Source of the DNA: Candidatus Heimdallarchaeota archaeon
Lineage (GTDB): Archaea > Asgardarchaeota > Heimdallarchaeia > Heimdallarchaeales > Heimdallarchaeaceae
NCBI GenBank assembly: GCA_019057375.1
Contig: DXJF01000114.1
Location: 44,632 to 108,631 of the forward strand
Reading direction: 5' to 3'
Length of the DNA stretch: 64,000 bases
The translations under genes were made by a program, and so were the position numbers. This document shows positions 24,385 through 60,202 of the stretch, piece by piece (within the stretch, counting starts at the first letter, position 1; each line of letters opens with the position of its first letter). Under the pieces are notes generated by a model. That model did not search any database and had not been told where the DNA came from. It saw only the letters and a program-made list of their open reading frames with translations.

Positions 24385-24492
24385 TGGAGCCCAGAGCGTG
24401 ATTTTCAATGCTCAGAACGCATCTGAAACAGTTCTTGAACACGCGACAACTGGATCTTCAGTCCAGCGCTCTCCCAGCTAAGCTATCTGGGC
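24385..24492 (-). tRNA. tRNA-Phe(GAA) with a 32-nt intron in the T-loop (59/60; intron 24402-24433)
   Basis: Acceptor GCCCAGA/TCTGGGC, anticodon arm CTGGA-CTGAAGA-TCCAG. The T arm forms a BHB: TTCA/TGAA central helix with bulges AGA and AAT. Splicing restores a 76-nt tRNA. Confidence 0.93.
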
Positions 24493-24939: not shown

Positions 24940-25569
24940 TTAATCTAAAGGCGTGTTCTTATACACTTTTCGATATTTTATCTTTTGATACTTGCTCCTA
25001 ATAAACCAAATTCCCCTTTTTATAACGCCTAAAAATGTATCTTCTTCAATGTTATAGATTAGTAGTTTCCATCTTTGATCAGTACGTTTTCCCCCAAATA
25101 ACAGTAAGATATTTCTTTCTTTGTCTTTATATCCTAAATAACTTCCAAATATTGCTAATGTTCCTTCTTCCCAATTTTCAACTTCTTTAACTAAATCAAA
25201 TACAAAAGCCTTTGAGTGATTTTGACCTGAATCTAAGGGAAATTCATAGTTTATCAAAGCTGGAACCAATGTTTGAGCTACATCCTTCTTCCTTTTTGAA
25301 TAATAAGGATGAACATTTATTACAAGAGACAAATCCATTACAGTACTTATCTCTCCTGAATTTCTAAAGAGAAGTTTAATCCTACAACCTGGAGGTTTAT
25401 TTTCTCTAATTATGTACGGTTGTTCAACTCTAACTTTTGATATGTAAATACGCGGTTGAGGTTGTGTTCTTCTTCTAGCATATAGGTAGTTCAACAATGC
25501 AAAAGATGTAGTTATTATTAGTGCTGCTATTGCTATTGACTCAGATCTCAACCATACCATATTTATCAA
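24940..25569 (-). CDS. Hypothetical protein with an N-terminal TM anchor and a beta-sandwich-like domain
   Basis: Hydrophobic N-terminus, then LFRNSGEIST; same architecture as 33166-33783. Confidence 0.65.
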   Translation of the reverse strand: MINMVWLRSESIAIAALIITTSFALLNYLYARRRTQPQPRIYISKVRVEQPYIIRENKPPGCRIKLLFRNSGEISTVMDLSLVINVHPYYSKRKKDVAQTLVPALINYEFPLDSGQNHSKAFVFDLVKEVENWEEGTLAIFGSYLGYKDKERNILLLFGGKRTDQRWKLLIYNIEEDTFLGVIKRGIWFIRSKYQKIKYRKVYKNTPLD

Positions 25570-25618
25570 ATATCTAGTTATTAATTTCTTATTTAATCTT
25601 TTTCAGTACTTCTCATGG

Positions 25619-26455
25619 TTATTTTTTCTCAAAAAACTCACTTAGGACTTTTCTTAATCTTTTTTCTACTTCATCACCTATTAATTTTGCTTGCTTTTTC
25701 TCATATTTGTATTCATCAATTTCTTTTTCTTCAGTCGAACTAGTTGGAGAAATTGATGAATATCTTCCTTCCTCTAAACTCCTATAATACTTGATTTCTT
25801 CTTTTAAACGATTGGAAAGCTCTATTTGTTCAGGTATTTCTTCTATTGCACCTAAGGTCTTTTCTTCATTAAATTTTGAACAATATTCTGATTCAAACTG
25901 AAATTTCCTTCTTGTATGGTCTTCTATTTCTTTCCTATCGAATATCAAATGTCTACAATCTTCAGATAGAACTGCTATTCCATTTCCTATGCAGAAATCA
26001 ACTCTCCTACTTGCTTCTGAAATATCTTTTTCTTCTGATTGAATCAGAGGTATTGCCCAATTTATCAATCCAATAATGCTTTCTTTATCAGCAATAATGT
26101 TATCATAATATGGGTCATTACGAGTATAGTAAGATTCACCTAAATCTAGATTATGTTTACAAATTCCTTTACACTCACTAAAAAAGGGACAAAAGATTGT
26201 CTTAAGTGCTTCTCGGTTTAACTTTGTTATTTCTTTATCATTCATCCAAATCTTAGTGGATTTCCAAGTACCTATGATATCAATAAGTTGTTTCAAATCA
26301 TTACTTGCTTCTGAAAAATAGATATTGTAAAAATTTTCATCTTCGGTAGAATCATTATCTTCAATAATCTTGAGTGCATCAGGATAAGAATCGCTTCTAG
26401 ATACTTTTGTAATTCTTAATTTTATTCCTTTATTATTTGTTTTTTCTGTTTCCAT
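25619..26455 (-). CDS. Hypothetical protein
   Basis: 278-aa ORF with a small Cys cluster (CPFFSECKGIC); no family recognised. Confidence 0.7.
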   Translation of the reverse strand: METEKTNNKGIKLRITKVSRSDSYPDALKIIEDNDSTEDENFYNIYFSEASNDLKQLIDIIGTWKSTKIWMNDKEITKLNREALKTIFCPFFSECKGICKHNLDLGESYYTRNDPYYDNIIADKESIIGLINWAIPLIQSEEKDISEASRRVDFCIGNGIAVLSEDCRHLIFDRKEIEDHTRRKFQFESEYCSKFNEEKTLGAIEEIPEQIELSNRLKEEIKYYRSLEEGRYSSISPTSSTEEKEIDEYKYEKKQAKLIGDEVEKRLRKVLSEFFEKK

Positions 26456-26587
26456 TCTATCACTAACTATATTTTCTTGGTCTTTTTATACTTTCTTTCT
26501 TCTCTCCTTACTGAAACTCTGTCTAGATGGGTCCTTCCAGCACTATTTCTACATAGATTTTTATAATTTGCTTCTATATGACATCTA

Positions 26588-27130
26588 ATGAATAAGGAAT
26601 ATGTTCTTGGTCTATTGCGAACAACTTTGAACAACTATGTAGTAGGCTGTCTTTCGGGATATTTTATCACGCATATAGATCCCTTCAATCTTACAGAAAC
26701 TATTGAGATGAGAAACCAAAATGCTCCAGAAGTATTTATTATACTTGATCTAAAACCAATAAAAGAATTGTTACAATTTCCTGATAAGAGAAGTAAATTA
26801 CTTAATGAACACATGAAATCTATACTCAGAAGTTTCGTTAAGGATATGTTTGAAATTGTTAAACTTTATACTAAAGAGACTAAACAATTTAATAAAATGA
26901 AGAAAGCTAATTGGTACGATTTTGTTCGTATCATTAGAAATTGCTTAGCCCATGATTTCAAATTAAGATTCAACAATCATGATAAGAAAACGCTTCCTGT
27001 TAAATGGCGGGATAAGGAAATTACTTTAACAATAAACAACCAACTATTAAATGTACAAATCTTGAATGAAGCTAATGCAATTGAGCTTTATAGTGAAATA
27101 TTTGCATATGTGGAAACTGAATTGAGCTAA
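26588..27130 (+). CDS. Putative HEPN-domain protein
   Basis: FVRIIRNCLAHD contains RxxxxH in a helical context. Confidence 0.55.
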   Translation: MNKEYVLGLLRTTLNNYVVGCLSGYFITHIDPFNLTETIEMRNQNAPEVFIILDLKPIKELLQFPDKRSKLLNEHMKSILRSFVKDMFEIVKLYTKETKQFNKMKKANWYDFVRIIRNCLAHDFKLRFNNHDKKTLPVKWRDKEITLTINNQLLNVQILNEANAIELYSEIFAYVETELS

Positions 27131-27272
27131 TTTAATCTTTTTCAATAGATTATTTCGTCTTATCTTAGTAAAACACTGACACCGAATTCTTTGTTCAAGA
27201 CTATTATAACAAGATTTATCTATTTATTTCATATTTTTTTAATTTAATTAAGAAATATGATGCTGAATATCT

Positions 27273-28097
27273 ATGACTGGAGAAACAATGGATGATATGA
27301 ATATAAATCAATTTGAGAAAGATACCTTACTTTTCCTCATTCAAGATGTTCTTGATGCTTTAGATGATTTGGAGGACTTAGAAGATGATGAGGTTTTTCA
27401 AGTAATTTACAGAAAAAAAGACCTTTCCTCAGAACAGTTTTATAGAATGCTGAAACTCATTGAGTTTTGTCAAGATAGCATATCTCCTTTCCCATTTTTC
27501 AGTAGAAAAGAAACTGAAGAAAATGGAATCAGAACAATTAGAATTAGATCTTCAGATGAGACAGGTATTTTTCATACATGTTACCTTGAATTTATTTTCA
27601 TAATTGGTGATGATTATGTTATTATCCCAGAAACCTGCGGTTGTAGAAAAGAGAATTTTGATTATACTCTTCCTTCTGTATTGTCCTTAGATATGTATAA
27701 GATTTGGTTATGTATTAGTTTACATGAAAACACAACAATTGAATTCAAAGATAGGGTTAATTCTCTTCTCAAAATGTATGTTCAAAGCAACTTCGTTGAA
27801 GCTTGGACACATATAGGTTTTATAGCTGAAACTCTGACAAAAGAGATTTATCTTAAATCCTACCCTAATAAAACTCTCACAGATACAAATAACATTAAAT
27901 GGAATAGTCTTCTCAAACAACTTGCAAATGATAAGAACCTTGCTGATATTGAACATTATGCACTTCTTTTAGATTCTCTCAGACCAATTAGAAATGATGT
28001 AATTCACAACGATTACAAACCAACATCTGAAGATACAGAATTAGGACTTCTAAGCTTAGATCGATTATTCAAGTTTTATGTGCAGAAATACAAATAA
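27273..28097 (+). CDS. Protein with a C-terminal HEPN/DUF4145-like domain
   Basis: AETLTKEIY...LRPIRNDVIHNDYKPTSEDTEL; N-terminal CGC...C possible metal site. Confidence 0.6.
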   Translation: MTGETMDDMNINQFEKDTLLFLIQDVLDALDDLEDLEDDEVFQVIYRKKDLSSEQFYRMLKLIEFCQDSISPFPFFSRKETEENGIRTIRIRSSDETGIFHTCYLEFIFIIGDDYVIIPETCGCRKENFDYTLPSVLSLDMYKIWLCISLHENTTIEFKDRVNSLLKMYVQSNFVEAWTHIGFIAETLTKEIYLKSYPNKTLTDTNNIKWNSLLKQLANDKNLADIEHYALLLDSLRPIRNDVIHNDYKPTSEDTELGLLSLDRLFKFYVQKYK

Positions 28098-28257
28098 TAA
28101 TCCTCTTCTCTACTACTATGTTGATATTGGGTGTTCTCCATTTGTCACTTTTTAGCTTCTTAATTTTTTGAGTCCTGTACCTATTAACTTTTGCTCGTGA
28201 TGTGTTTTTATATGGTTTTTTAGTTGAATTGGTGAGTATAACCACTATTACTTCAAA

Positions 28258-29922
28258 GTGACAGTTATGGAAAAAACTATTCTCCTTGGATATGAATATG
28301 ATTACGGTTTAACCTCTAATGAAATTTCTATAGATATTGGTGAACTCCTCTATAATGTTGAAATCTATGGAATGATTGGAAGAGGAAAAACTCGCTTGGT
28401 CTGCAGTATTATTCAACATCTTTTTCACAATAAAGTACCAAGTTTGATCTTCGATATCAAGGGGGAATATGCTGCAACTTTTGCTACTGAACCAAATGTA
28501 GAGATTTTTACAATTGGTGCTCCTCATCCACTCTGTATCAATCTTTTTGATACCAAAGATGAAGATGATGTCAGTGGAACACTCTTAGTTATTGAAGAGA
28601 TGATGGTTTCTTCTAACCAAGAATTCAGTCCTTCGATGAAAAACCTCTTTGAAACAGCTCTATTCCTAACCCACAAAGCTGAGGTAAGAACACTAGAGAC
28701 CTTTGTTGAAAACCTAATTGCTCTTGCTAAGAAAACTAAACAGATCAAATCAATACAACATACCTTAGATGCTGTTCTTAATAGATTAAATTACATCTTA
28801 AATCCTATCAGTTTTGAGATTTTAGGAGTCTCTCAAACAACGTTAAACTTCGATATGTTAGAGCAAGGAAAAAGCATAATTCTTGATCTTAGCCAATTTC
28901 AAAAAAGGGCAGCTAGACCGTCGGATATCTACCTTATTTGCAATCTTATTTTGAAACTATTTTACAAGTATGCATCCTCTAAAGAACTAACCAACAAGTT
29001 ACGTTATGTTGTGGTTTTAGAAGAAGCGATTAACATTATACCTCACTTCTATAGAAAACAGAGTTCAGCATCCTTGATTACAGCTGAAAACAACTTCTTA
29101 CTTGGTAGAAGTCTAGGTATTGGTCACATAACTATATCTCAAATGTGGAATAGTGTGAGTAATGTTGTTCATGCAAATTCCTCAACTAAGATTGTTTTTC
29201 GTTCAGGTCAGGAAATAGAGAAAATTGCTAAAGCTCTAAATCTTCAAGATTTTTATTTCAAACGTCTCCAACAACTACCAATTCGTCATTGTTTCCTCTG
29301 GAAGGATGGTCAAGAATATGTCAAAGAGATGACTACAGTTAATTTTACTCTTGAACCACTCAAATACGACCATTATTTGTTATTTCTTAGAAGAAAATAC
29401 CATTCTTCTACTTATCCTCTATTATTTAGCAACTTTATTGATATGCGAACAGCACTCTACGATAAACTAACCAATACCAAGAAAACCAAACAAAAAAAGA
29501 AGGAGAAACCAGTTGAAAATAACCAAATATCTAAGAAAAATCCAGATTCTCAAAAGGAAATTACAAGTAAAGTTGAGCAATTCAAGAAGATATTTTCAGA
29601 AGAAATCAAATTTCAATTAGATGATGTTTGTTTCACCTTTTGTTCTTTAAGCAAAGACAAGAAGAAATGTATGAAAATTAGAAAAGATGCAGAAAGAGTC
29701 AACTCGTCTCTACTGAAGAGATTTACAGAGTATGAGATTAAACAAGCTATACTTGAAAAATCTCAGATATCAATAGATGAGCTGCTAAAACAAGTTCTTC
29801 TAGAGAACAAGCTGTCATCTAATAGTCAAGTACTATTTTGTGCAAAGAGAGAATTAATCAATTTTTTGATGAGAAGTGACCAAGAATTATCCTTCAATCT
29901 TTCTAACAATTCAAAAAAGTAG
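28258..29922 (+). CDS. HerA/DUF87 (FtsK-HerA superfamily) ATPase
   Basis: Walker A GMIGRGKT, IFDIKGEY, Walker B VVLEEA, arginine-finger region GRSLGIGHITISQ, NSSTKIVFR. Confidence 0.85.
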   Translation: MTVMEKTILLGYEYDYGLTSNEISIDIGELLYNVEIYGMIGRGKTRLVCSIIQHLFHNKVPSLIFDIKGEYAATFATEPNVEIFTIGAPHPLCINLFDTKDEDDVSGTLLVIEEMMVSSNQEFSPSMKNLFETALFLTHKAEVRTLETFVENLIALAKKTKQIKSIQHTLDAVLNRLNYILNPISFEILGVSQTTLNFDMLEQGKSIILDLSQFQKRAARPSDIYLICNLILKLFYKYASSKELTNKLRYVVVLEEAINIIPHFYRKQSSASLITAENNFLLGRSLGIGHITISQMWNSVSNVVHANSSTKIVFRSGQEIEKIAKALNLQDFYFKRLQQLPIRHCFLWKDGQEYVKEMTTVNFTLEPLKYDHYLLFLRRKYHSSTYPLLFSNFIDMRTALYDKLTNTKKTKQKKKEKPVENNQISKKNPDSQKEITSKVEQFKKIFSEEIKFQLDDVCFTFCSLSKDKKKCMKIRKDAERVNSSLLKRFTEYEIKQAILEKSQISIDELLKQVLLENKLSSNSQVLFCAKRELINFLMRSDQELSFNLSNNSKK

Positions 29923-30310
29923 GTTCTTCCTCTTCTCCCCATAGCAGTCAACTTTCTCTATTCTTTTTCATAACTCTTCTTCATTCTAATTATTCTTTTT
30001 AGAATGATTTGGCACAAAATTTCTGTGGTGCTAATAATATCAACCTCATTCTAGATTCCTGATAGGCAAGAATTACAACCAAACCTGTAATTCTTCGCTT
30101 TTCACCTAAAAGGAAAAAGGAGATGAGAAAAAAGAATAGGTAGTTCTTTGAGATCTTATTCGAATTCCTGAAGCAATTTTACACGTAGTACTTATCATTG
30201 GTTCCTCTACTGGTTTCAAACTGAGAAGAGAAGAGGATCCAATGATTTTCGACAATTCGAAAAGAGTTTCAGTGTTTATAATACACTTCCAATTTCAAAA
30301 GGTGAAAACC

Positions 30311-31846
30311 ATGAAAATTGAAGAAATTAATGAACAAAAAGAACTACAATCAAAAGTCAAGAAACATGGAAAACATGGAGAAGTCAAAAGCATGTCTCAA
30401 GCACCATTAGTTACATTCTACGAGGTTGTCCCTTTGAGAATCAAGACGGAATTAATGTCTGTGAGAGAGTGCGAAAGGTTGCGAAGAATAACCGAACGAG
30501 ATACCAGAATCATTCGAGACTACCTCAGAATCATCAAACATAACGAGGAGAATATTCTGCAAAAAAACGGCAAAGTCAATACGTCCCTGTTGGATAAATT
30601 GACTTTAACCACATCGAAGAATACGAAGAACAAGTTACGGACATCTGTTCCTCATGACTTGAAGAAACGTTATCCCCGTTGCTCTTTTGATGAATTCCAA
30701 GAATGCAGAGACAAAGCTATCTGGACTTATGAAAGCTGGAAAGCACAACAAGATGTTTCCAAAAAGGAACTGAGTAGACCAAAGTTTAAGAATAAAACCC
30801 CCCGACCCTTGTTCAAAGGAACAGAAGGCAGAGGTACATTTCAGGTACATTCCAAATCTGATAATACTGATGCTAGACTTTGGCTGGAGTTAAGGGATTC
30901 TCTTGATACAAAACGATCTGGCAAACGAACCCATCAGAGACTATGGCTACCATTAGCTTACTCACCTTACCACGAAAAGAGGTTGAAACTAGAGAACATC
31001 AAAATGATGGAACTAGTACGCAAATCCAAAGAACAACAGTGGTGGGCACATTTCACCCTCCAGTATTCTGTCTCATGTTACCAATCCACCCTTCCACCTG
31101 CAGTGTTAGGAGTAGACCTGGGAATAAAGAAGACAGCTGTTGCAGTCTTACTTACCCCTACAGGCAAAGTAATTATGGATGAAATCCGCTTCATCGTCAA
31201 TAAGGAGAGACAGTCTAAGATATGGCAACTTGAAAACCAAATCGAGGATACTCAGAGAAAGTTGAACAAAAGTCTCAACAACGGTCAGCACACTAAACAG
31301 CTTAACACTACACTCTTCCGTCTACGTAGAAGACGACGTTCTATTATAGAACAAGAACTGGGGTATGCTGTTAACCAATTGGTTGATTTCACCCTTCAGT
31401 TGAAGAAGCGTTACAATCTGTTTGTGTCTGTTGGCTATCCTAAGAACATTCAGAAAAGTCAACCTCGAGGTAGTGGAAACAAATCTCATAGAAGACGATT
31501 ACATAAATGGTGTTACCGTCTTTTCATTACTAAGCTGAAATATAAGCTTACTAGCTATGGGTTTGAACCTCTTCGAGTAGTAGCTGTTAAGGAGAGCGAC
31601 ACCTCTAAAACATGTTCTAGATGCAATTCTACAAACACTACACGTACAGGACAAGGACAGTTCAATTGCCACGATTGCAACTACGTACTAGACGCTGACT
31701 TGAACGGAGCAAAGAACATAGGAAAGAGGTTGATTCGATATGTATTGAAATCAAAGTTCAATTATATATTCGATATATTAACAAAAGAATGCTATCCACT
31801 AAGACACTACAAGTCTTTCCTGCCCTTAGGTCAATGGCTTAAGTGA
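30311..31846 (+). CDS. tnpB: TnpB-like RNA-guided endonuclease with a rearranged RuvC site (ORF track starts at 30242; ATG 30311 follows GGTGA)
   Basis: RuvC-I VLGVDLG; RuvC-II VSVGYP (Gly instead of Glu); VKESDTSKTCSRC...CHDC Zn finger; RuvC-III DADLNGAKNI. Confidence 0.9.
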   Translation: MKIEEINEQKELQSKVKKHGKHGEVKSMSQAPLVTFYEVVPLRIKTELMSVRECERLRRITERDTRIIRDYLRIIKHNEENILQKNGKVNTSLLDKLTLTTSKNTKNKLRTSVPHDLKKRYPRCSFDEFQECRDKAIWTYESWKAQQDVSKKELSRPKFKNKTPRPLFKGTEGRGTFQVHSKSDNTDARLWLELRDSLDTKRSGKRTHQRLWLPLAYSPYHEKRLKLENIKMMELVRKSKEQQWWAHFTLQYSVSCYQSTLPPAVLGVDLGIKKTAVAVLLTPTGKVIMDEIRFIVNKERQSKIWQLENQIEDTQRKLNKSLNNGQHTKQLNTTLFRLRRRRRSIIEQELGYAVNQLVDFTLQLKKRYNLFVSVGYPKNIQKSQPRGSGNKSHRRRLHKWCYRLFITKLKYKLTSYGFEPLRVVAVKESDTSKTCSRCNSTNTTRTGQGQFNCHDCNYVLDADLNGAKNIGKRLIRYVLKSKFNYIFDILTKECYPLRHYKSFLPLGQWLK

Positions 31847-32010
31847 TTCTGCAAAGAATACATCATTTAGCAATATTTGATGTGCGAGGTCGAGAATCTG
31901 TCGTTTCACTTGTTTGACTGATTCAGCAATGAGTGCCCTTTATCAGGAGATGAATCCTTTGAACAGATTTACAGCAATGTAAATGTTCCAGAAAACTAGT
32001 ACTGTAACTT
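31846..32010 (+). ncRNA. Candidate omegaRNA (TnpB guide scaffold)
   Basis: Four GCAA-capped hairpins on the tnpB sense strand directly after the stop codon: 31846-31859, 31860-31883, 31921-31934, 31961-31988. Confidence 0.7.
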
Positions 32011-32331
32011 ATGAAATATTCTATTTTTCATTTTACAGTTATGCCTCCTTGCCTACCCTTAGCTACGCTAGTTTAGGATGAGTCTTGAAAGGATCTATTT
32101 GAAAATCGTAAGGTTTTTGAAGAGAAAATAACTCATTAAAAGTTTTTTGTTTCGTTTCCATTCTCTTTCCTTTTCCTTTTTTTTCTCTGTAAATGCTTAT
32201 GTTTTGATTGATTTTAATAGAAAAAAGATAAGGCATAATAATAACCTTGCTTGCTTTTTTTCGATTTTTTCTTCTATTTTTGTTCCGTTTCTTTCTATTT
32301 CTTTTTAAATTTATTTTAAATTCTCTTTACC

Positions 32332-33144
32332 ATGCCTTCTCCTTCCAGAAAAAACCCTTGGTCTTCTCCTGAATGGAAAGCTCTCGTGGAACGTCTTCGC
32401 AAAGATTATTGTGAAATCTGTGGTTCTCGTACTCCTCCTTTCACTCTTCATCATGAAAAACCCCTTCTTCCCTATTCTTCCATTCGTACTCAAGTTGCAG
32501 AATCTCTCTTTTCTGAGCTTCTCGATAAAGGTGAGTTAAATACTGATCTCATTCAAGTTACTATTCGTGATTCTTGTCCTGAATGTGATTCCATCAATGT
32601 TCAAGGTCCCCGTTCTACTATCTCTCCTCCCTTTTACTGTGGTCGCTGTTATCATCGTTTTGATCATCCTGTCAAAAAGAAAGTTAAAAACGATAAGGCT
32701 CTTCGTCGTGACTTTTTTCAGAGATTTAAGGACGAAATCGATAAAAGAACTCAGATAGAACGAGATAAACAATCTGCTTATTATCTTTCTGGCAAAGATG
32801 TTATTACTGTTTGTTCAAGATGTCACCTTCCTACTGAACAGGGCAAGGTTTTATGCAAAATCTGTAATCACCACTTTCACAACGCTCGTTTCAATCAATG
32901 TTGGGAATGTTTCATCAAGATGAAGATTGCTGATGGACAAGTTAAATGTAAATTTTGTGAATCAAAATTTCATTCCTCTGATGAACCTGCTTGTGATGAA
33001 TGTAGTATTTTAAGATCCACTATCTACTGCCAAGAATGTAATCAAACCAAATATTCTCTTTCTTGCTATTGTTATAATTGTGAAACATCCATCTGCGAAG
33101 ATTGTTCTTCAAAACATAGTGAAAGGGGACATGATGTTGTGTAA
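32332..33144 (+). CDS. HNH-endonuclease-like protein with several zinc fingers and a C-terminal B-box-like domain
   Basis: W...R...CEICG...LHH and, after an insertion, VITVCSRCH; two CxxCxxxFHx6CxxC repeats; terminal CxxC-x10-CxxC-x4-CxxC-x3-H-x4-H. Confidence 0.7.
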   Translation: MPSPSRKNPWSSPEWKALVERLRKDYCEICGSRTPPFTLHHEKPLLPYSSIRTQVAESLFSELLDKGELNTDLIQVTIRDSCPECDSINVQGPRSTISPPFYCGRCYHRFDHPVKKKVKNDKALRRDFFQRFKDEIDKRTQIERDKQSAYYLSGKDVITVCSRCHLPTEQGKVLCKICNHHFHNARFNQCWECFIKMKIADGQVKCKFCESKFHSSDEPACDECSILRSTIYCQECNQTKYSLSCYCYNCETSICEDCSSKHSERGHDVV

Positions 33145-33165
33145 ATACTCTAGGCTCCAAATCTT

Positions 33166-33783
33166 TTATTCATTTTGCTGGTGATTTTCTATTTTGACTC
33201 TTTTCCAGAATTTTTTAACATATTTTCTTTTTGCTTCTTCTATTCCAAAATATTCTAATCTTGTCTCCTCAATTACTTCTCTTTCAATCTTGTAGTATTT
33301 GTTGATTTTCTGCATTTTGTTTCTATGATCTAAGAAAACATATAAAATTTCTAAATGAGGAATCTCCCAGAGACCTGGGTCTATAAATTCTATTGTTTGA
33401 TTCAATTCTATAACCTCATCTGGCTTGAGTCTATAATCTTCTGTAATAATTTTCATCTCATAATCTAATGATGATTCATCTTCAGCTCCAACAGTTGATT
33501 GGTTTAATGCTCTCAGAAACATGAAGAAGTCAATATTTGTTGTCATATCTCCTACATTGTGAAGTCTGTATTCAACCTTGATTTTTGAAAAATTTATTCC
33601 CTTCTCAGGAATACTGAAACCTAAGATGTTAAAATTAATCTTAGGTCCTCTTCTATCTCTATAAAACCTCATAATAGCCAACAATAACATTCCAACTGAA
33701 ACAACAGAACCAATTAGTGCAAGTAAAAAACTAGTAATTGTAAAAGCATCCATAACTATATGATGGATCTTCTTGTTTATCAA
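33166..33783 (-). CDS. Hypothetical protein with an N-terminal TM anchor and a beta-sandwich-like domain
   Basis: Hydrophobic N-terminus, then RLHNVGDMTT; same architecture as 24940-25569. Confidence 0.65.
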   Translation of the reverse strand: MINKKIHHIVMDAFTITSFLLALIGSVVSVGMLLLAIMRFYRDRRGPKINFNILGFSIPEKGINFSKIKVEYRLHNVGDMTTNIDFFMFLRALNQSTVGAEDESSLDYEMKIITEDYRLKPDEVIELNQTIEFIDPGLWEIPHLEILYVFLDHRNKMQKINKYYKIEREVIEETRLEYFGIEEAKRKYVKKFWKRVKIENHQQNE

Positions 33784-34034
33784 TTTTTCACACTTATGTT
33801 ATCTGCTCTGTAGACACCGGCTCTTTAATTTGATTTGTTTTTCTTCTCCATAAATCTTCTAACATTCTTTTTCTTATTGTTTATTATTGGTTTAAATGAC
33901 TAACAACAATGAAGATCCTATTAATCTAAAATCTATTCACTTTCTACACATCCACACCTTATGTCAAAATTGAGATCTATCGTTTCTCATTGGAATGTTT
34001 TTATAATTCTACTTCCTTTTATCTTTGATTCACA

Positions 34035-35633
34035 TTGATTCTTCGAAAGAAAGATGTTTCTATTCTTAGGGAACTGACCTTAGATTTTCTTAATCAATTC
34101 TTTTCTTATATCCATTCTTCTGCTTTTTCTGACAGATATATTAAGCATTACGATACTGTCTTAGACGTTTTTCAGTCTTTTTGTACTGCTGAAAAAGGTG
34201 ATCCTGAATCCTCTTCTTTCAGTTTTTCAATTGATGATATTTACTCCTTATCACATGCTGAAATAAAGCATTTTACTAATCTATATCTTGACAATGAACA
34301 GAATAATTCAAAAGTTGAGACTTTGGAAAAGATTGGTGCTTTCAAAAGTCTTAATTACTTCAGACTCGGCCCTCACTTGTCTTTATTTGGTTTTATTTTT
34401 TATAGATTTATACAAGAACAATTCAAAGCCTCATCAAAAGAAGATATCTTTAGTATACTTGAGAGACTAGAATTCAATAGAGATTTATTTGATAACCTGT
34501 TCACTGAAATAACTGATCTAATTGTAGAGGATGTTGTTAAACTAGACTATTTTTACTTTATTTATGGAGTCAGAGTTACAGGAGAATCAACTTCTTTTGA
34601 TAAAACTAAAAATGAAGAGTTCTTAAAATTGAATAACAAAATTAGAAAAGAGTTAATCAAGAAATTCAGATTTAGGAAAGATGAATTTACTGGAACCTCT
34701 ATACTAATCAATAAGATGAATTGGATAATGAATTGTCCTACTATGATTTGGGGAGAACTAACAGTAAAGAATCCTCAAATCAAGGAAGATTTGAAAAATT
34801 TAGATGATTTGAAACTCAAAAATGTTGATCTACTTGTTCCAATTTACCTAGAAGAAGCACTGTTTTTACTAGGGTACACTAATCCTTTAGTTCATTTTGC
34901 TAGTATTACGCATCCTAGCTATTTTGGTAATTTTAGTGTCAACTCTACTCCTCGAGGAATTTTCTTCTCCAGAGGTGACTTTAGTGGTTTACAATATCCT
35001 TATTGGATGAATAAAGAGATGTATGACTTTCGTCGTCCTCTAGGTAAATCTGAAGAATTTGTTCTCTCTTCTGACAAATTAGAGTTCTTGAGATTATATC
35101 CTAGATTTAGATTTAAATTAAAAGAGAACTCTATTGAAAGATTAATACTTAATAGATTTTACCGAGTGATGGAACTTTCAGATCCAAAGGACATAATACT
35201 AGAATCTTGTATAATTTTTGAAACTATAACAACTACAGAAACTAAGGAAGTAGGTTTTCAATTAAGAATAAAACTAGCTTGGCTTTTAGCCAAGAATCTT
35301 GAGTATAAGAAACTAATACAAAAAATTTCTAGAATTCTCTATGATATACGAAGCGACATTGTTCATAATGGGGGCATTAGTTCTGAAAAGAAAGCTAAAA
35401 AACTTGGAGGATTGAAGAATGCAGCTAAAATTTCAAAAATGATGGTAAGGATCTTAATTTTAAGAATTTTGCATGTTGGAGACAACAAAATCACTATAAT
35501 GTCTAGAAACGAGGTATCAAATGCTCTAGATAATTTAATGTTAGGTGAAGAAAAGCAATTGCCTGAAAACTCTTATTTTAAAGAACTATCTTCAGTATTC
35601 TTTGATAACATCTCAGAATTAGTTAAGTTTTAG
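34035..35633 (+). CDS. Large protein with a C-terminal ApeA-like HEPN domain
   Basis: IIFETI...EVGFQLRIKLAWLL...LYDIRSDIVHNG. Confidence 0.7.
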   Translation: MILRKKDVSILRELTLDFLNQFFSYIHSSAFSDRYIKHYDTVLDVFQSFCTAEKGDPESSSFSFSIDDIYSLSHAEIKHFTNLYLDNEQNNSKVETLEKIGAFKSLNYFRLGPHLSLFGFIFYRFIQEQFKASSKEDIFSILERLEFNRDLFDNLFTEITDLIVEDVVKLDYFYFIYGVRVTGESTSFDKTKNEEFLKLNNKIRKELIKKFRFRKDEFTGTSILINKMNWIMNCPTMIWGELTVKNPQIKEDLKNLDDLKLKNVDLLVPIYLEEALFLLGYTNPLVHFASITHPSYFGNFSVNSTPRGIFFSRGDFSGLQYPYWMNKEMYDFRRPLGKSEEFVLSSDKLEFLRLYPRFRFKLKENSIERLILNRFYRVMELSDPKDIILESCIIFETITTTETKEVGFQLRIKLAWLLAKNLEYKKLIQKISRILYDIRSDIVHNGGISSEKKAKKLGGLKNAAKISKMMVRILILRILHVGDNKITIMSRNEVSNALDNLMLGEEKQLPENSYFKELSSVFFDNISELVKF

Positions 35634-35703
35634 TTTGGTTTCGTGTTATTTTTATTAGAAAGGTTTTTTACTAATAATTAACAGAATTAACTAGTGCTTT
35701 CAA

Positions 35704-36729
35704 TTGGAGGAAGTTTTGTTGTTCAAAGAGATTCTAAAAACTGACATGATTAAAGGAGAAAGAGCAGATTTAAGTAAACAAATGAATTTGGGCTATTTTC
35801 AAACTCTTTGGCAAATAATTAAAGAAAACAGCAAAAAGAAGATCTTTATTTTAGCTCTATGTTCTTGTTTGGCCTGTTCCGGGTTTGTAGTTTCTCTTGT
35901 TGTCTTTTCAGATCCAGACATAAAATTAGTATCTACTATAATTATTGTATTTTTCATTGTTTTGCTTTTGGTAGTTCTATTCGTTAGCCCTCTGAAACGC
36001 ACTCAAATTATATCAAAACTAATTAAAATTAACAAATTATTGCGAATTGTTCAATTTATTAGCTTTACAATCGCTTTATCTATACTTTTGATTCTTATTT
36101 GCTTTTTAGATTTTCTTGAAAGTGATTATTGGATGTTCTTAACTGGATTTTTCTTGATGGTTTCATTTTTTTTCATCCTTTTTGTTTCTATGACCCTTTC
36201 TGTAGATATAGAAGAAAGAGATAAAGTTTTTTGGCACTTGCTTTTTATTCATTATCCTTATCTTGATAAAGAAAATTATGATAAATTATTTGATTCAATT
36301 CAGCACGAATGTGAAAATAATTCAAATATCATTAATGATTTCCAGGATATTCTAAAAAGATTATCAAAAATACTTGAATCTTTTATTTCTCCAAAACTTA
36401 GAGTTAAATTACATACTTCAGATTCATACAATCTTCATCTATCTTTCCTGAATAATCAAGAAACCCAGAAAATCACCAATGCATTCATCTCTACCATTTT
36501 AGAACTTAACAAAGGTAATTTCAAGAATTTCTATATGTATTTTCACCAACTGGTTCAATTTTTCAGAAGTGAAAATCTGTCAGCTCCAATTGATTCATTT
36601 GTATTTCATCCTAAAGCTTCTGTGAACAAGTTTTTTTCAAAGATAATTTACAATCAATATTTTCTTGGATTCGTATTTATATTAATATCAGGTCTATTTG
36701 GATTTCTTACCAATTTTTTAAAACCTTAA
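35704..36729 (+). CDS. Hypothetical membrane protein (about 4 N-terminal TMs and 1 C-terminal TM)
   Basis: Hydrophobic segments flanking a soluble helical region; start codon uncertain. Confidence 0.65.
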   Translation: MEEVLLFKEILKTDMIKGERADLSKQMNLGYFQTLWQIIKENSKKKIFILALCSCLACSGFVVSLVVFSDPDIKLVSTIIIVFFIVLLLVVLFVSPLKRTQIISKLIKINKLLRIVQFISFTIALSILLILICFLDFLESDYWMFLTGFFLMVSFFFILFVSMTLSVDIEERDKVFWHLLFIHYPYLDKENYDKLFDSIQHECENNSNIINDFQDILKRLSKILESFISPKLRVKLHTSDSYNLHLSFLNNQETQKITNAFISTILELNKGNFKNFYMYFHQLVQFFRSENLSAPIDSFVFHPKASVNKFFSKIIYNQYFLGFVFILISGLFGFLTNFLKP

Positions 36730-56287: not shown

Positions 56288-56396
56288 TGGTGCCTCAACC
56301 GGGATTTGAACCCGGGTCTGCGGATATTCCTGCTTAGTCACGCGGACTTTCTCATGTGAAAGTCCGCAATGATTGGCCGAGCTACACCATTGAGGC
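56288..56396 (-). tRNA. tRNA-Glu(TTC) with a 31-nt anticodon-loop intron (37/38 or 38/39)
   Basis: Acceptor GCCTCAA/TTGAGGC, GCGGA-CTTTCA-[insert]-TCCGC, T arm CCGGG-TTCAAAT-CCCGG, encoded CCA. Confidence 0.9.
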
Positions 56397-60094: not shown

Positions 60095-60202
60095 GGCCGG
60101 ATGGTCTAGCTTGGTATGGCCCCTGGTTTGGGACCAGGAGATCCCGTGTTCAAAAGGTTTCAGATGCGTTCTGAAATACTGAAAATCATGGTCCGGCCAC
60201 CA
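60095..60202 (+). tRNA. tRNA-Pro(TGG) with a 31-nt intron in the T-loop (59/60; intron 60155-60185)
   Basis: Acceptor GGCCGGA/TCCGGCC, anticodon arm CCTGG-TTTGGGA-CCAGG; BHB with TTCA/TGAA helix and bulges AAA and AAT. Confidence 0.93.

Follow-up and report, generated by a model that had tools for sequence, protein, structure and literature searches.

The window analysed here, i.e. the whole 64,000-nucleotide stretch of a Candidatus Heimdallarchaeota genome, harbors two tRNA genes interrupted in their T-loop, between positions 59 and 60: a tRNA-Phe(GAA) gene on the minus strand (24385-24492) and a tRNA-Pro(UGG) gene on the plus strand (60095-60202). The tRNA-Phe gene starts with a 5' exon (positions 1-59; 24434..24492, minus) that ends with the T-stem strand GCGTG and the T-loop sequence TTCAAG, and gives a partial Rfam tRNA match of 23.8 bits. 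Then comes a 32-nt bulge-helix-bulge (BHB) intron (24402..24433, minus) made up, in this order, of a bulge A, an inner hairpin with the core TTCAGATGCGTTCTGA, a TGAA segment that pairs with the TTCA of the T-loop, and a bulge AA. The 3' exon (24385..24401, minus) comprises T60, the T-stem strand CACGC, the acceptor strand, the discriminator and an encoded CCA. Similarly, the tRNA-Pro gene consists of a 5' exon (60095..60154, plus) ending with the T-stem strand CCGTG and the T-loop sequence TTCAAA; a 31-nt BHB intron (60155..60185, plus), the hairpin core and TGAAAA 3' end of which are identical to those of the Phe intron; and a 3' exon (60186..60202, plus) with T60, the T-stem strand CATGG, the acceptor strand, the discriminator and an encoded CCA.

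The two introns have in common the 18-mer GTTTCAGATGCGTTCTGA and the TGAAAA end, and the coordinates and sequences that an earlier note on this DNA had assigned to these elements were exact. When up to three mismatches were tolerated, the 18-mer was found twice in the window, as compared to 0.08 matches expected; with at most one mismatch, a search of the whole genome (3.47 Mb, 159 contigs) returned just the Phe and Pro sites. The global identity between both introns is 79%, a value reached by none of 2000 shuffles (mean 49%, maximum 73%). Together with the 59/60 position of both inserts, these data bear out the claim of the note that homologous introns occupy the same non-canonical site of unrelated tRNAs. 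The Phe junction is uniquely 59/60, as the intron-less Phe alleles of related species read TTCAAGT, while the sequence of the Pro gene alone permits a shift of one or two bases, the BHB rule placing the junction at 59/60. The alignment of the Phe and Pro genes is restricted to the T-arm and the intron (78% identity, query positions 47-108), and thus the duplication of a whole tRNA gene is not the explanation for the shared intron. More generally, the host tRNAs of the 59/60 family differ in their anticodon and acceptor stem, and mostly also in their T-stem.

Neither gene was detected by ARAGORN or at the Rfam gathering threshold, and Rfam run in E-value mode returned the partial Phe match only. 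With the insert cut out at 59/60, ARAGORN called a cloverleaf tRNA-Phe(GAA) and a cloverleaf tRNA-Pro(UGG). A genome-wide scan for T-loop introns revealed no 59/60 intron other than those of Phe and Pro in the genome of the window (G000), all its other matches being false excisions from intact tRNAs, and no likeness to the Phe/Pro family was evident by eye in the other introns of G000. Automated typing also stumbled on other intron-bearing tRNAs. A second ARAGORN "Phe(GAA)" (G000 C47:59658-59767) is actually an Ile(GAU) gene with a canonical intron, the ARAGORN "Ser(GGA)" (G000 C115:55577-55683) reads as a Pro(GGG) gene with a canonical intron, and the Tyr gene of a related genome (G024) was called His. 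Such mistyping will lead to erroneous automated tRNA counts in this lineage and, since standard finders miss the genes with T-loop introns, the lineage seems to be devoid of tRNA-Phe and tRNA-Pro(UGG) unless such introns are searched for.

Two other features of the window were noticed. The tRNA-Glu(UUC) gene (56288-56396, minus; Rfam 47 bits) has a 31-nt intron that ARAGORN places at position 41 instead of 37/38. The tRNA-Phe gene is adjoined by a run of accessory genes (24940-36729), which encode, among others, a HerA-like ATPase (28258-29922) and a TnpB-like protein (30242-31846). No partial repeat of tRNA-Phe occurs at the ends of this island, so that there is no sign of its integration via tRNA-Phe as an attachment site.

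In both precursors, the outer helix of the BHB motif is the 5-bp T-stem, and the 4-bp central helix pairs the T-loop UUCA (54-57) with the UGAA of the intron 3' end. The two 3-nt bulges, A58-R59-A (the last A being intron nucleotide 1) and A-A-U60, contain the splice sites (A-R/A and A-A/U, where the slash marks the cut). The inner helix is the 6-7 bp hairpin UUUCAGA-UGCGU-UCUGAAA, with a YGCGY loop, and it is irregular beside the bulges, where one pair is followed by a mismatch or bulge and then by the hairpin. RNAfold returned the expected fold for Phe, including the 4-bp central helix, and only the T-stem and the hairpin for Pro. In an alignment of 27 distinct T-arm and intron sequences collected from the genomes described below, the BHB geometry is intact in 27/27, 99% of the cells are paired and five pairs display compensatory changes, a level of pairing and covariation that none of 500 shuffles attained and that slid registers did not approach either. 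The description of the motifs as strict BHB in the earlier note holds for the two 3-nt bulges and the 4-bp helix; it was slightly generous as regards the irregular inner helix and the Pro precursor, which RNAfold folds without the central helix. We also considered, and rejected, a K-turn or box C/D reading of the hairpin (GAUG...CUGA), because a natural variant in which CAG/CUG is changed into UAG/CUA retains the Watson-Crick pairs and destroys the G.A pairs. Furthermore, a 31-nt intron is too short to contain a guide segment, which argues against an intron bearing a box C/D sRNA. No Rfam family was found for the hairpin, the CRISPR-repeat and snoRNA matches (E = 3-9) being noise.

Several lines of evidence suggest that the interrupted genes are functional and can be spliced. 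The tRNA-Phe gene is single-copy in the G000 assembly (89% complete) and, as regards the intron-less functional copies envisaged in the earlier note, the assembly contains no intron-less tRNA-Phe gene. Between species, the interrupted genes have an exon identity of 94-95%, with compensatory changes in the acceptor and T stems. G000 encodes RtcB and two paralogues of the splicing endonuclease EndA (183 and 180 amino acids), which the earlier note had proposed to type. The best match of the first paralogue (183 amino acids) is the catalytic subunit of Aeropyrum pernix (3P1Z_B, E = 3.5e-39), and it also matches the Pyrobaculum aerophilum catalytic subunit, both enzymes being heterotetramers. The motifs of this paralogue contain the expected Tyr, His and Lys residues, and one of its segments, which includes KP, aligns with the extra loop. 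The second paralogue (180 amino acids) is more distant. Judging from these alignments, the EndA of G000 is predicted to be a two-subunit, Crenarchaeota-like enzyme, in agreement with the report that the Asgard EndA is an (alpha-beta)2 enzyme with an L1 loop (PMC5829648). We infer from the sequences that splicing takes place in vivo, and the same holds for the direction and route of the intron transfers discussed below.

A search of 185,579 species, each represented by a single genome, with the pattern GTTCAA-N4-9-TTCAGAYGCGYTCTGA yielded 28 matches, namely two chance matches in bacteria and 26 matches in the records of Candidatus Heimdallarchaeota or related archaeal MAGs (including AB_125), the titles of which identify the lineage called Asgard-like in the earlier note as Heimdallarchaeota. 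Metagenome contigs provided nine further tRNA cases (Phe, Pro, Ser and Tyr), along with four chance matches outside tRNAs. G000 falls in a genus represented by 25 species genomes, AB_125 among them; its family comprises 31 such genomes and its order 47. Like G000, many genomes of the set are incomplete (72-92% complete), which leaves some tRNA states uncalled. The 16-nt core has 28 exact copies in the order (47 genomes), each of them located in a T-loop intron of this genus. The reversed-pattern control gave 0 copies, and neither a free-standing copy of the core nor a core inside a mobile element was found across the 47 genomes of the order.

The 59/60 intron of tRNA-Phe is present in 16 of the 24 congeners (17 genomes counting G000), and that of tRNA-Pro(UGG) in 10 congeners (11 genomes counting G000). 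Precisely intron-less genes occur in four congeners for tRNA-Phe (TTCAAGT; G014, G003, G020 and G013) and in nine for tRNA-Pro(UGG) (TTCAAAT), and in both cases these alleles from sister species are identical to the predicted spliced product. In several species, both tRNA genes belong to a single syntenic neighbourhood. The searches in sister genera revealed no 59/60 intron in Phe (g10, g11 and g13), Pro (g11 and g13) or Tyr (g10-g13). As a separate observation, the Phe intron of G004, G007 and G019 (L014, L015 and L010) opens with TCTCG, which repeats the start of the 3' exon (T|CTCGC), and the 5' exon together with the beginning of this intron can build a complete pseudo T-arm. This repeat might be a trace resembling a target duplication or might reflect an alternative fold.

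Across the genus, tRNA genes of eight identities (Phe, Pro, Tyr, Ser, Thr, Asn, Trp and Asp) were found to carry the 59/60 family or its diverged relatives, and every member sits at 59/60. After excision of the insert and typing of the host, the exact core TTCAGAYGCGYTCTGA was also assigned at this site to tRNA-Tyr (G009 and G013) and tRNA-Ser(GGA) (G016). The diverged members comprise those of Tyr in G018, G024 and G021, which have a compensated CTAGA...TCTAG stem, of Thr(UGU) and Asn(GUU) in G014, of Trp in G011 and of Asp, typed by hand, in G008, as well as those of Trp in two genomes from another family of the order, which retain GTTTCAGATGCGTT. A covariance model gave scores above 60 bits in this genus only, and 26-48 bits for the diverged members; being built on the T-arm and intron, it rewards the family's own loop, so that a bias towards resemblance affected the selection of the low-scoring members (Thr, Asn, Trp and Asp, plus Trp in that other family). 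Two candidate matches were discarded, one in a coding-like sequence (G025:C230), attributable to chance, and one that is not a tRNA (G018:C380, 26 bits). Unrelated hairpins occur in the 59/60 introns of tRNA-Ala (G025) and tRNA-Trp (G032) of the same order, indicating that the site itself does not require the family sequence. Altogether, these sequence comparisons support the view that the 59/60 family has probably spread between tRNA genes. Besides this family, the canonical intron of tRNA-Tyr (46-47 nt; L164-L183) contains a stretch, CCCTTGTGA.CAATGATCAAGG, that is well conserved in the genus and its sister genera and looks like another constrained intron segment.

As the earlier note had proposed, the introns were mapped on a phylogeny of the relatives, for which we used CysRS and RpoB (1,447 columns). 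This tree divides the genus into five clades, and because it is built on two proteins and some of its nodes have only 44-54% support, the counts of gains and losses are approximate. The Phe intron occurs in all five clades, and parsimony requires one gain and four losses, versus ten gains if no loss is allowed; the Pro intron fits one gain and about six losses. The Tyr intron is found in five of the 26 genomes scored and is absent from all outgroups and 16 congeners, which implies at least three gains. As a side observation, the rpoB-like frame of G020 (L143/L151, G020:C1:84825-89249) encodes 1,637 amino acids, as compared to 1,132-1,149 in its congeners, with a match split in two; the extra length may correspond to an intein or another insertion. 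Moreover, the sole RpoB match in G015 (G015:C117; L146/L149) shows 42-51% identity and includes two TGA codons in frame, and no genus-type rpoB was found in the G015 bin; this contig may be a contaminant or use another genetic code.

The introns of the window are more similar to their orthologues (85-88% for Phe and 90-97% for Pro) than to each other (79%), which indicates that the Phe/Pro split predates the radiation of the genus, and that both copies in the window are old. The patchy distribution of the Phe and Pro introns is best read as mostly reflecting repeated precise loss. For instance, the intron-less Pro gene of G024 has the same derived CATGG T-stem as that of G000, suggesting that the Pro intron was lost recently and precisely in G024. 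Exchanges of tRNA alleles between species probably add to this patchiness: the tRNA-Phe gene of G013 (L163, G013:C88:56500-56800) lacks the 59/60 intron and has a canonical 12-nt intron that, together with the anticodon stem, resembles that of the distant G001 (L016), with flanks that match its own clade. Other members of the family appear to be younger, in that the Thr and Asn introns occur only in G014, the Ser intron only in G016, and the exact-core Tyr intron in G009 and G013, and this restriction of gains to single species or pairs of species suggests that the spread has continued. In clade A, the Pro gene of G018 carries the family, while its Tyr gene has a different variant; the sisters of G018, G009 and G013, have lost the Pro intron, and their Tyr intron is 90% identical to Pro introns. 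Apparently, a Pro-type copy took the place of the Tyr intron on a short branch. The idea of a recent, possibly ongoing spread, put forward in the earlier note, is thus supported as regards the spread itself, which the gains seen in one or two species (Tyr, Thr, Asn and Ser) suggest has continued, but not for the copies of the window, which are old and nearer to their orthologues.

From these data we propose, with a probability of about 0.83, that the Phe and Pro introns of the window are two old, orthologous members of one family of 59/60 BHB introns, which was later copied into other tRNA genes and often precisely lost. A simpler history would involve a single ancient entry into Phe and Pro, followed only by precise losses and by whole-allele exchanges through homologous recombination. 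It would account for the closer resemblance of orthologous than paralogous introns, for the fit of Phe and Pro to one gain and 4-6 losses, for the CATGG stem shared by G000 and G024, with its implied recent loss, and for the G001-like Phe allele lying inside own-clade flanks in G013. We nevertheless hold it to be unlikely, because one to five species each have members of the family in Tyr, Ser, Thr, Asn, Trp and Asp, with outgroups and most congeners lacking it there; because the 90% identity of the G009/G013 Tyr introns to Pro introns, together with the differing variant of their sister G018, requires that an intron moved late from one type of tRNA to another at least once; and because the data lean toward gains of the Tyr, Ser, Thr or Asn introns on terminal branches.

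A history of independent origins, in which convergent selection for one required sequence produced the shared hairpin, appears far less probable still. The strong purifying selection acting on the core (96-97% identity, versus about 54% for the rest of the intron) does indicate that this sequence matters to the cell, but other 59/60 introns manage with unrelated hairpins (those of Ala and Trp mentioned above), the similarity reaches the variable flanks beyond the core (90% between the G009 Tyr and the Pro introns), and it is very unlikely that an identical 18-mer arose twice by chance. We give even less credence to the possibility that the inserts are unspliced and mark pseudogenes or assembly artefacts, the latter having been envisaged in the earlier note. 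That standard tools miss or under-score both genes would fit this possibility; against it, the inserts were recovered from species genomes that had been assembled separately (17 for Phe and 11 for Pro), as well as from metagenome contigs, in genes whose exons are conserved with compensatory changes and whose BHB geometry is maintained in every distinct sequence, the assembly containing just one tRNA-Phe gene.

Returning to the proposal of one family that was copied and lost, the introns would operate as follows. EndA would cut in both bulges and RtcB would ligate the exons, to generate a normal T-loop, UUCAAGU in Phe or UUCAAAU in Pro. As the intron brings with it the pairing partner of the near-universal T-loop sequence, any tRNA whose T-loop reads UUCAA can form a spliceable motif with it, and this portability explains the presence of the family in many tRNA types. 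The arrival of the family in tRNA-Phe and tRNA-Pro would date from the base of the Heimdallarchaeota genus or later; afterwards, the family would have been copied into further tRNA genes in single species, with many precise losses. Concerning the route of copying, Pro and Tyr share 13 nt on the 5' side and 6 nt on the 3' side of the intron, while Thr, Asn and Ser share with Pro/Tyr just the 7-nt T-loop and one base around the intron. With a homology between donor and recipient sometimes limited to the 7-nt T-loop, ordinary homologous recombination is unlikely as a general route. For an RNA-level reverse reaction with subsequent copying into DNA, no obvious reverse transcriptase is at hand, as the search for RVT_1 in G000 (89% complete) found none. 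The mechanism by which archaeal tRNA introns move has been left open (PMC4090602).

The inner hairpin displays an exon-like level of conservation. Across species, the identity is 96-97% for the 16-nt core, 53-55% for the remaining part of the intron and 39-47% for the 3' flank, and the loop retains its GCG throughout, including in the variant with the compensated stem. To our knowledge, BHB recognition does not need a particular sequence in the inner hairpin. Such a conservation is unexpected, and it points to a sequence-specific partner. Tentatively, and with clear reservations as to its likelihood, one may envisage the 16-nt hairpin as a functional module that would act as a copying signal, recognised by a factor of the cell or of a mobile element for insertion into new T-loops, serve a role in the excised intron or maintain an intron in the T-loop so as to break the target sites of tRNA-directed mobile elements. 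As regards the latter possibility, an intron at 59/60 would not separate positions 54-59 of the T-loop from the 5' exon, and a shielding from TnpB elements is therefore not obvious.

Compared with the canonical 37/38 archaeal intron, the 59/60 introns follow the same BHB logic and are expected to depend on the same EndA and RtcB enzymes, but their outer and central helices derive from the T-arm instead of the anticodon arm, their site is 59/60, and ARAGORN and the Rfam threshold miss their host genes. The transposition of introns between tRNA genes has been described in Thermoproteales (Fujishima et al. 2010, as summarised in PMC4033280 and PMC4090602), a precedent that the earlier note had rightly cited. 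As far as these summaries describe them, the Thermoproteales families resemble the present one in consisting of near-identical short BHB introns located at the same position of tRNAs that have different identities and unrelated bodies, in varying between close relatives, and in residing in hosts endowed with an (alpha-beta)2 EndA with an extra loop. The same summaries depict many families and many sites in Thermoproteales, whereas in Heimdallarchaeota we found one small family at the single site 59/60, with two copies in G000. The inner hairpin of the Heimdallarchaeota family displays exon-like conservation, which may also set it apart from the Thermoproteales introns as they appear through these summaries.

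In Asgard archaea, a preprint of October 2026 reported that cross-isotype families (at least 80% identity) account for 1.5% of introns, versus 28% in Thermoproteales, that no arrival route is general and that Heimdallarchaeia carry few introns (10.64898/2026.10.13.758758). The introns studied in this preprint and in PMC11291895 are similar to those analysed here in their non-canonical BHB motifs, repeated gains on terminal branches and two-subunit EndA. These studies centre on Freyr-, Jordi- and Atabeyarchaeia, whereas it is the Heimdallarchaeota genus that shows a clear cross-isotype family, the Phe/Pro pair falling, with its 79% identity, just below the 80% threshold of the preprint (10.64898/2026.10.13.758758).

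Previously, the only clear instance of intron copying between tRNAs was that of Thermoproteales, and the Heimdallarchaeota family provides a clear case outside that order. With one family, one site and 25 species genomes that display both precise losses and single-species gains, the genus constitutes a small and tractable system, in which the narrow homology shared by the host genes (sometimes the 7-nt T-loop) narrows the range of possible copying mechanisms. If the 16-nt hairpin does turn out to be a functional module, the family would represent a minimal RNA element, either mobile or selected, with sequence specificity, rather than a passive BHB spacer.
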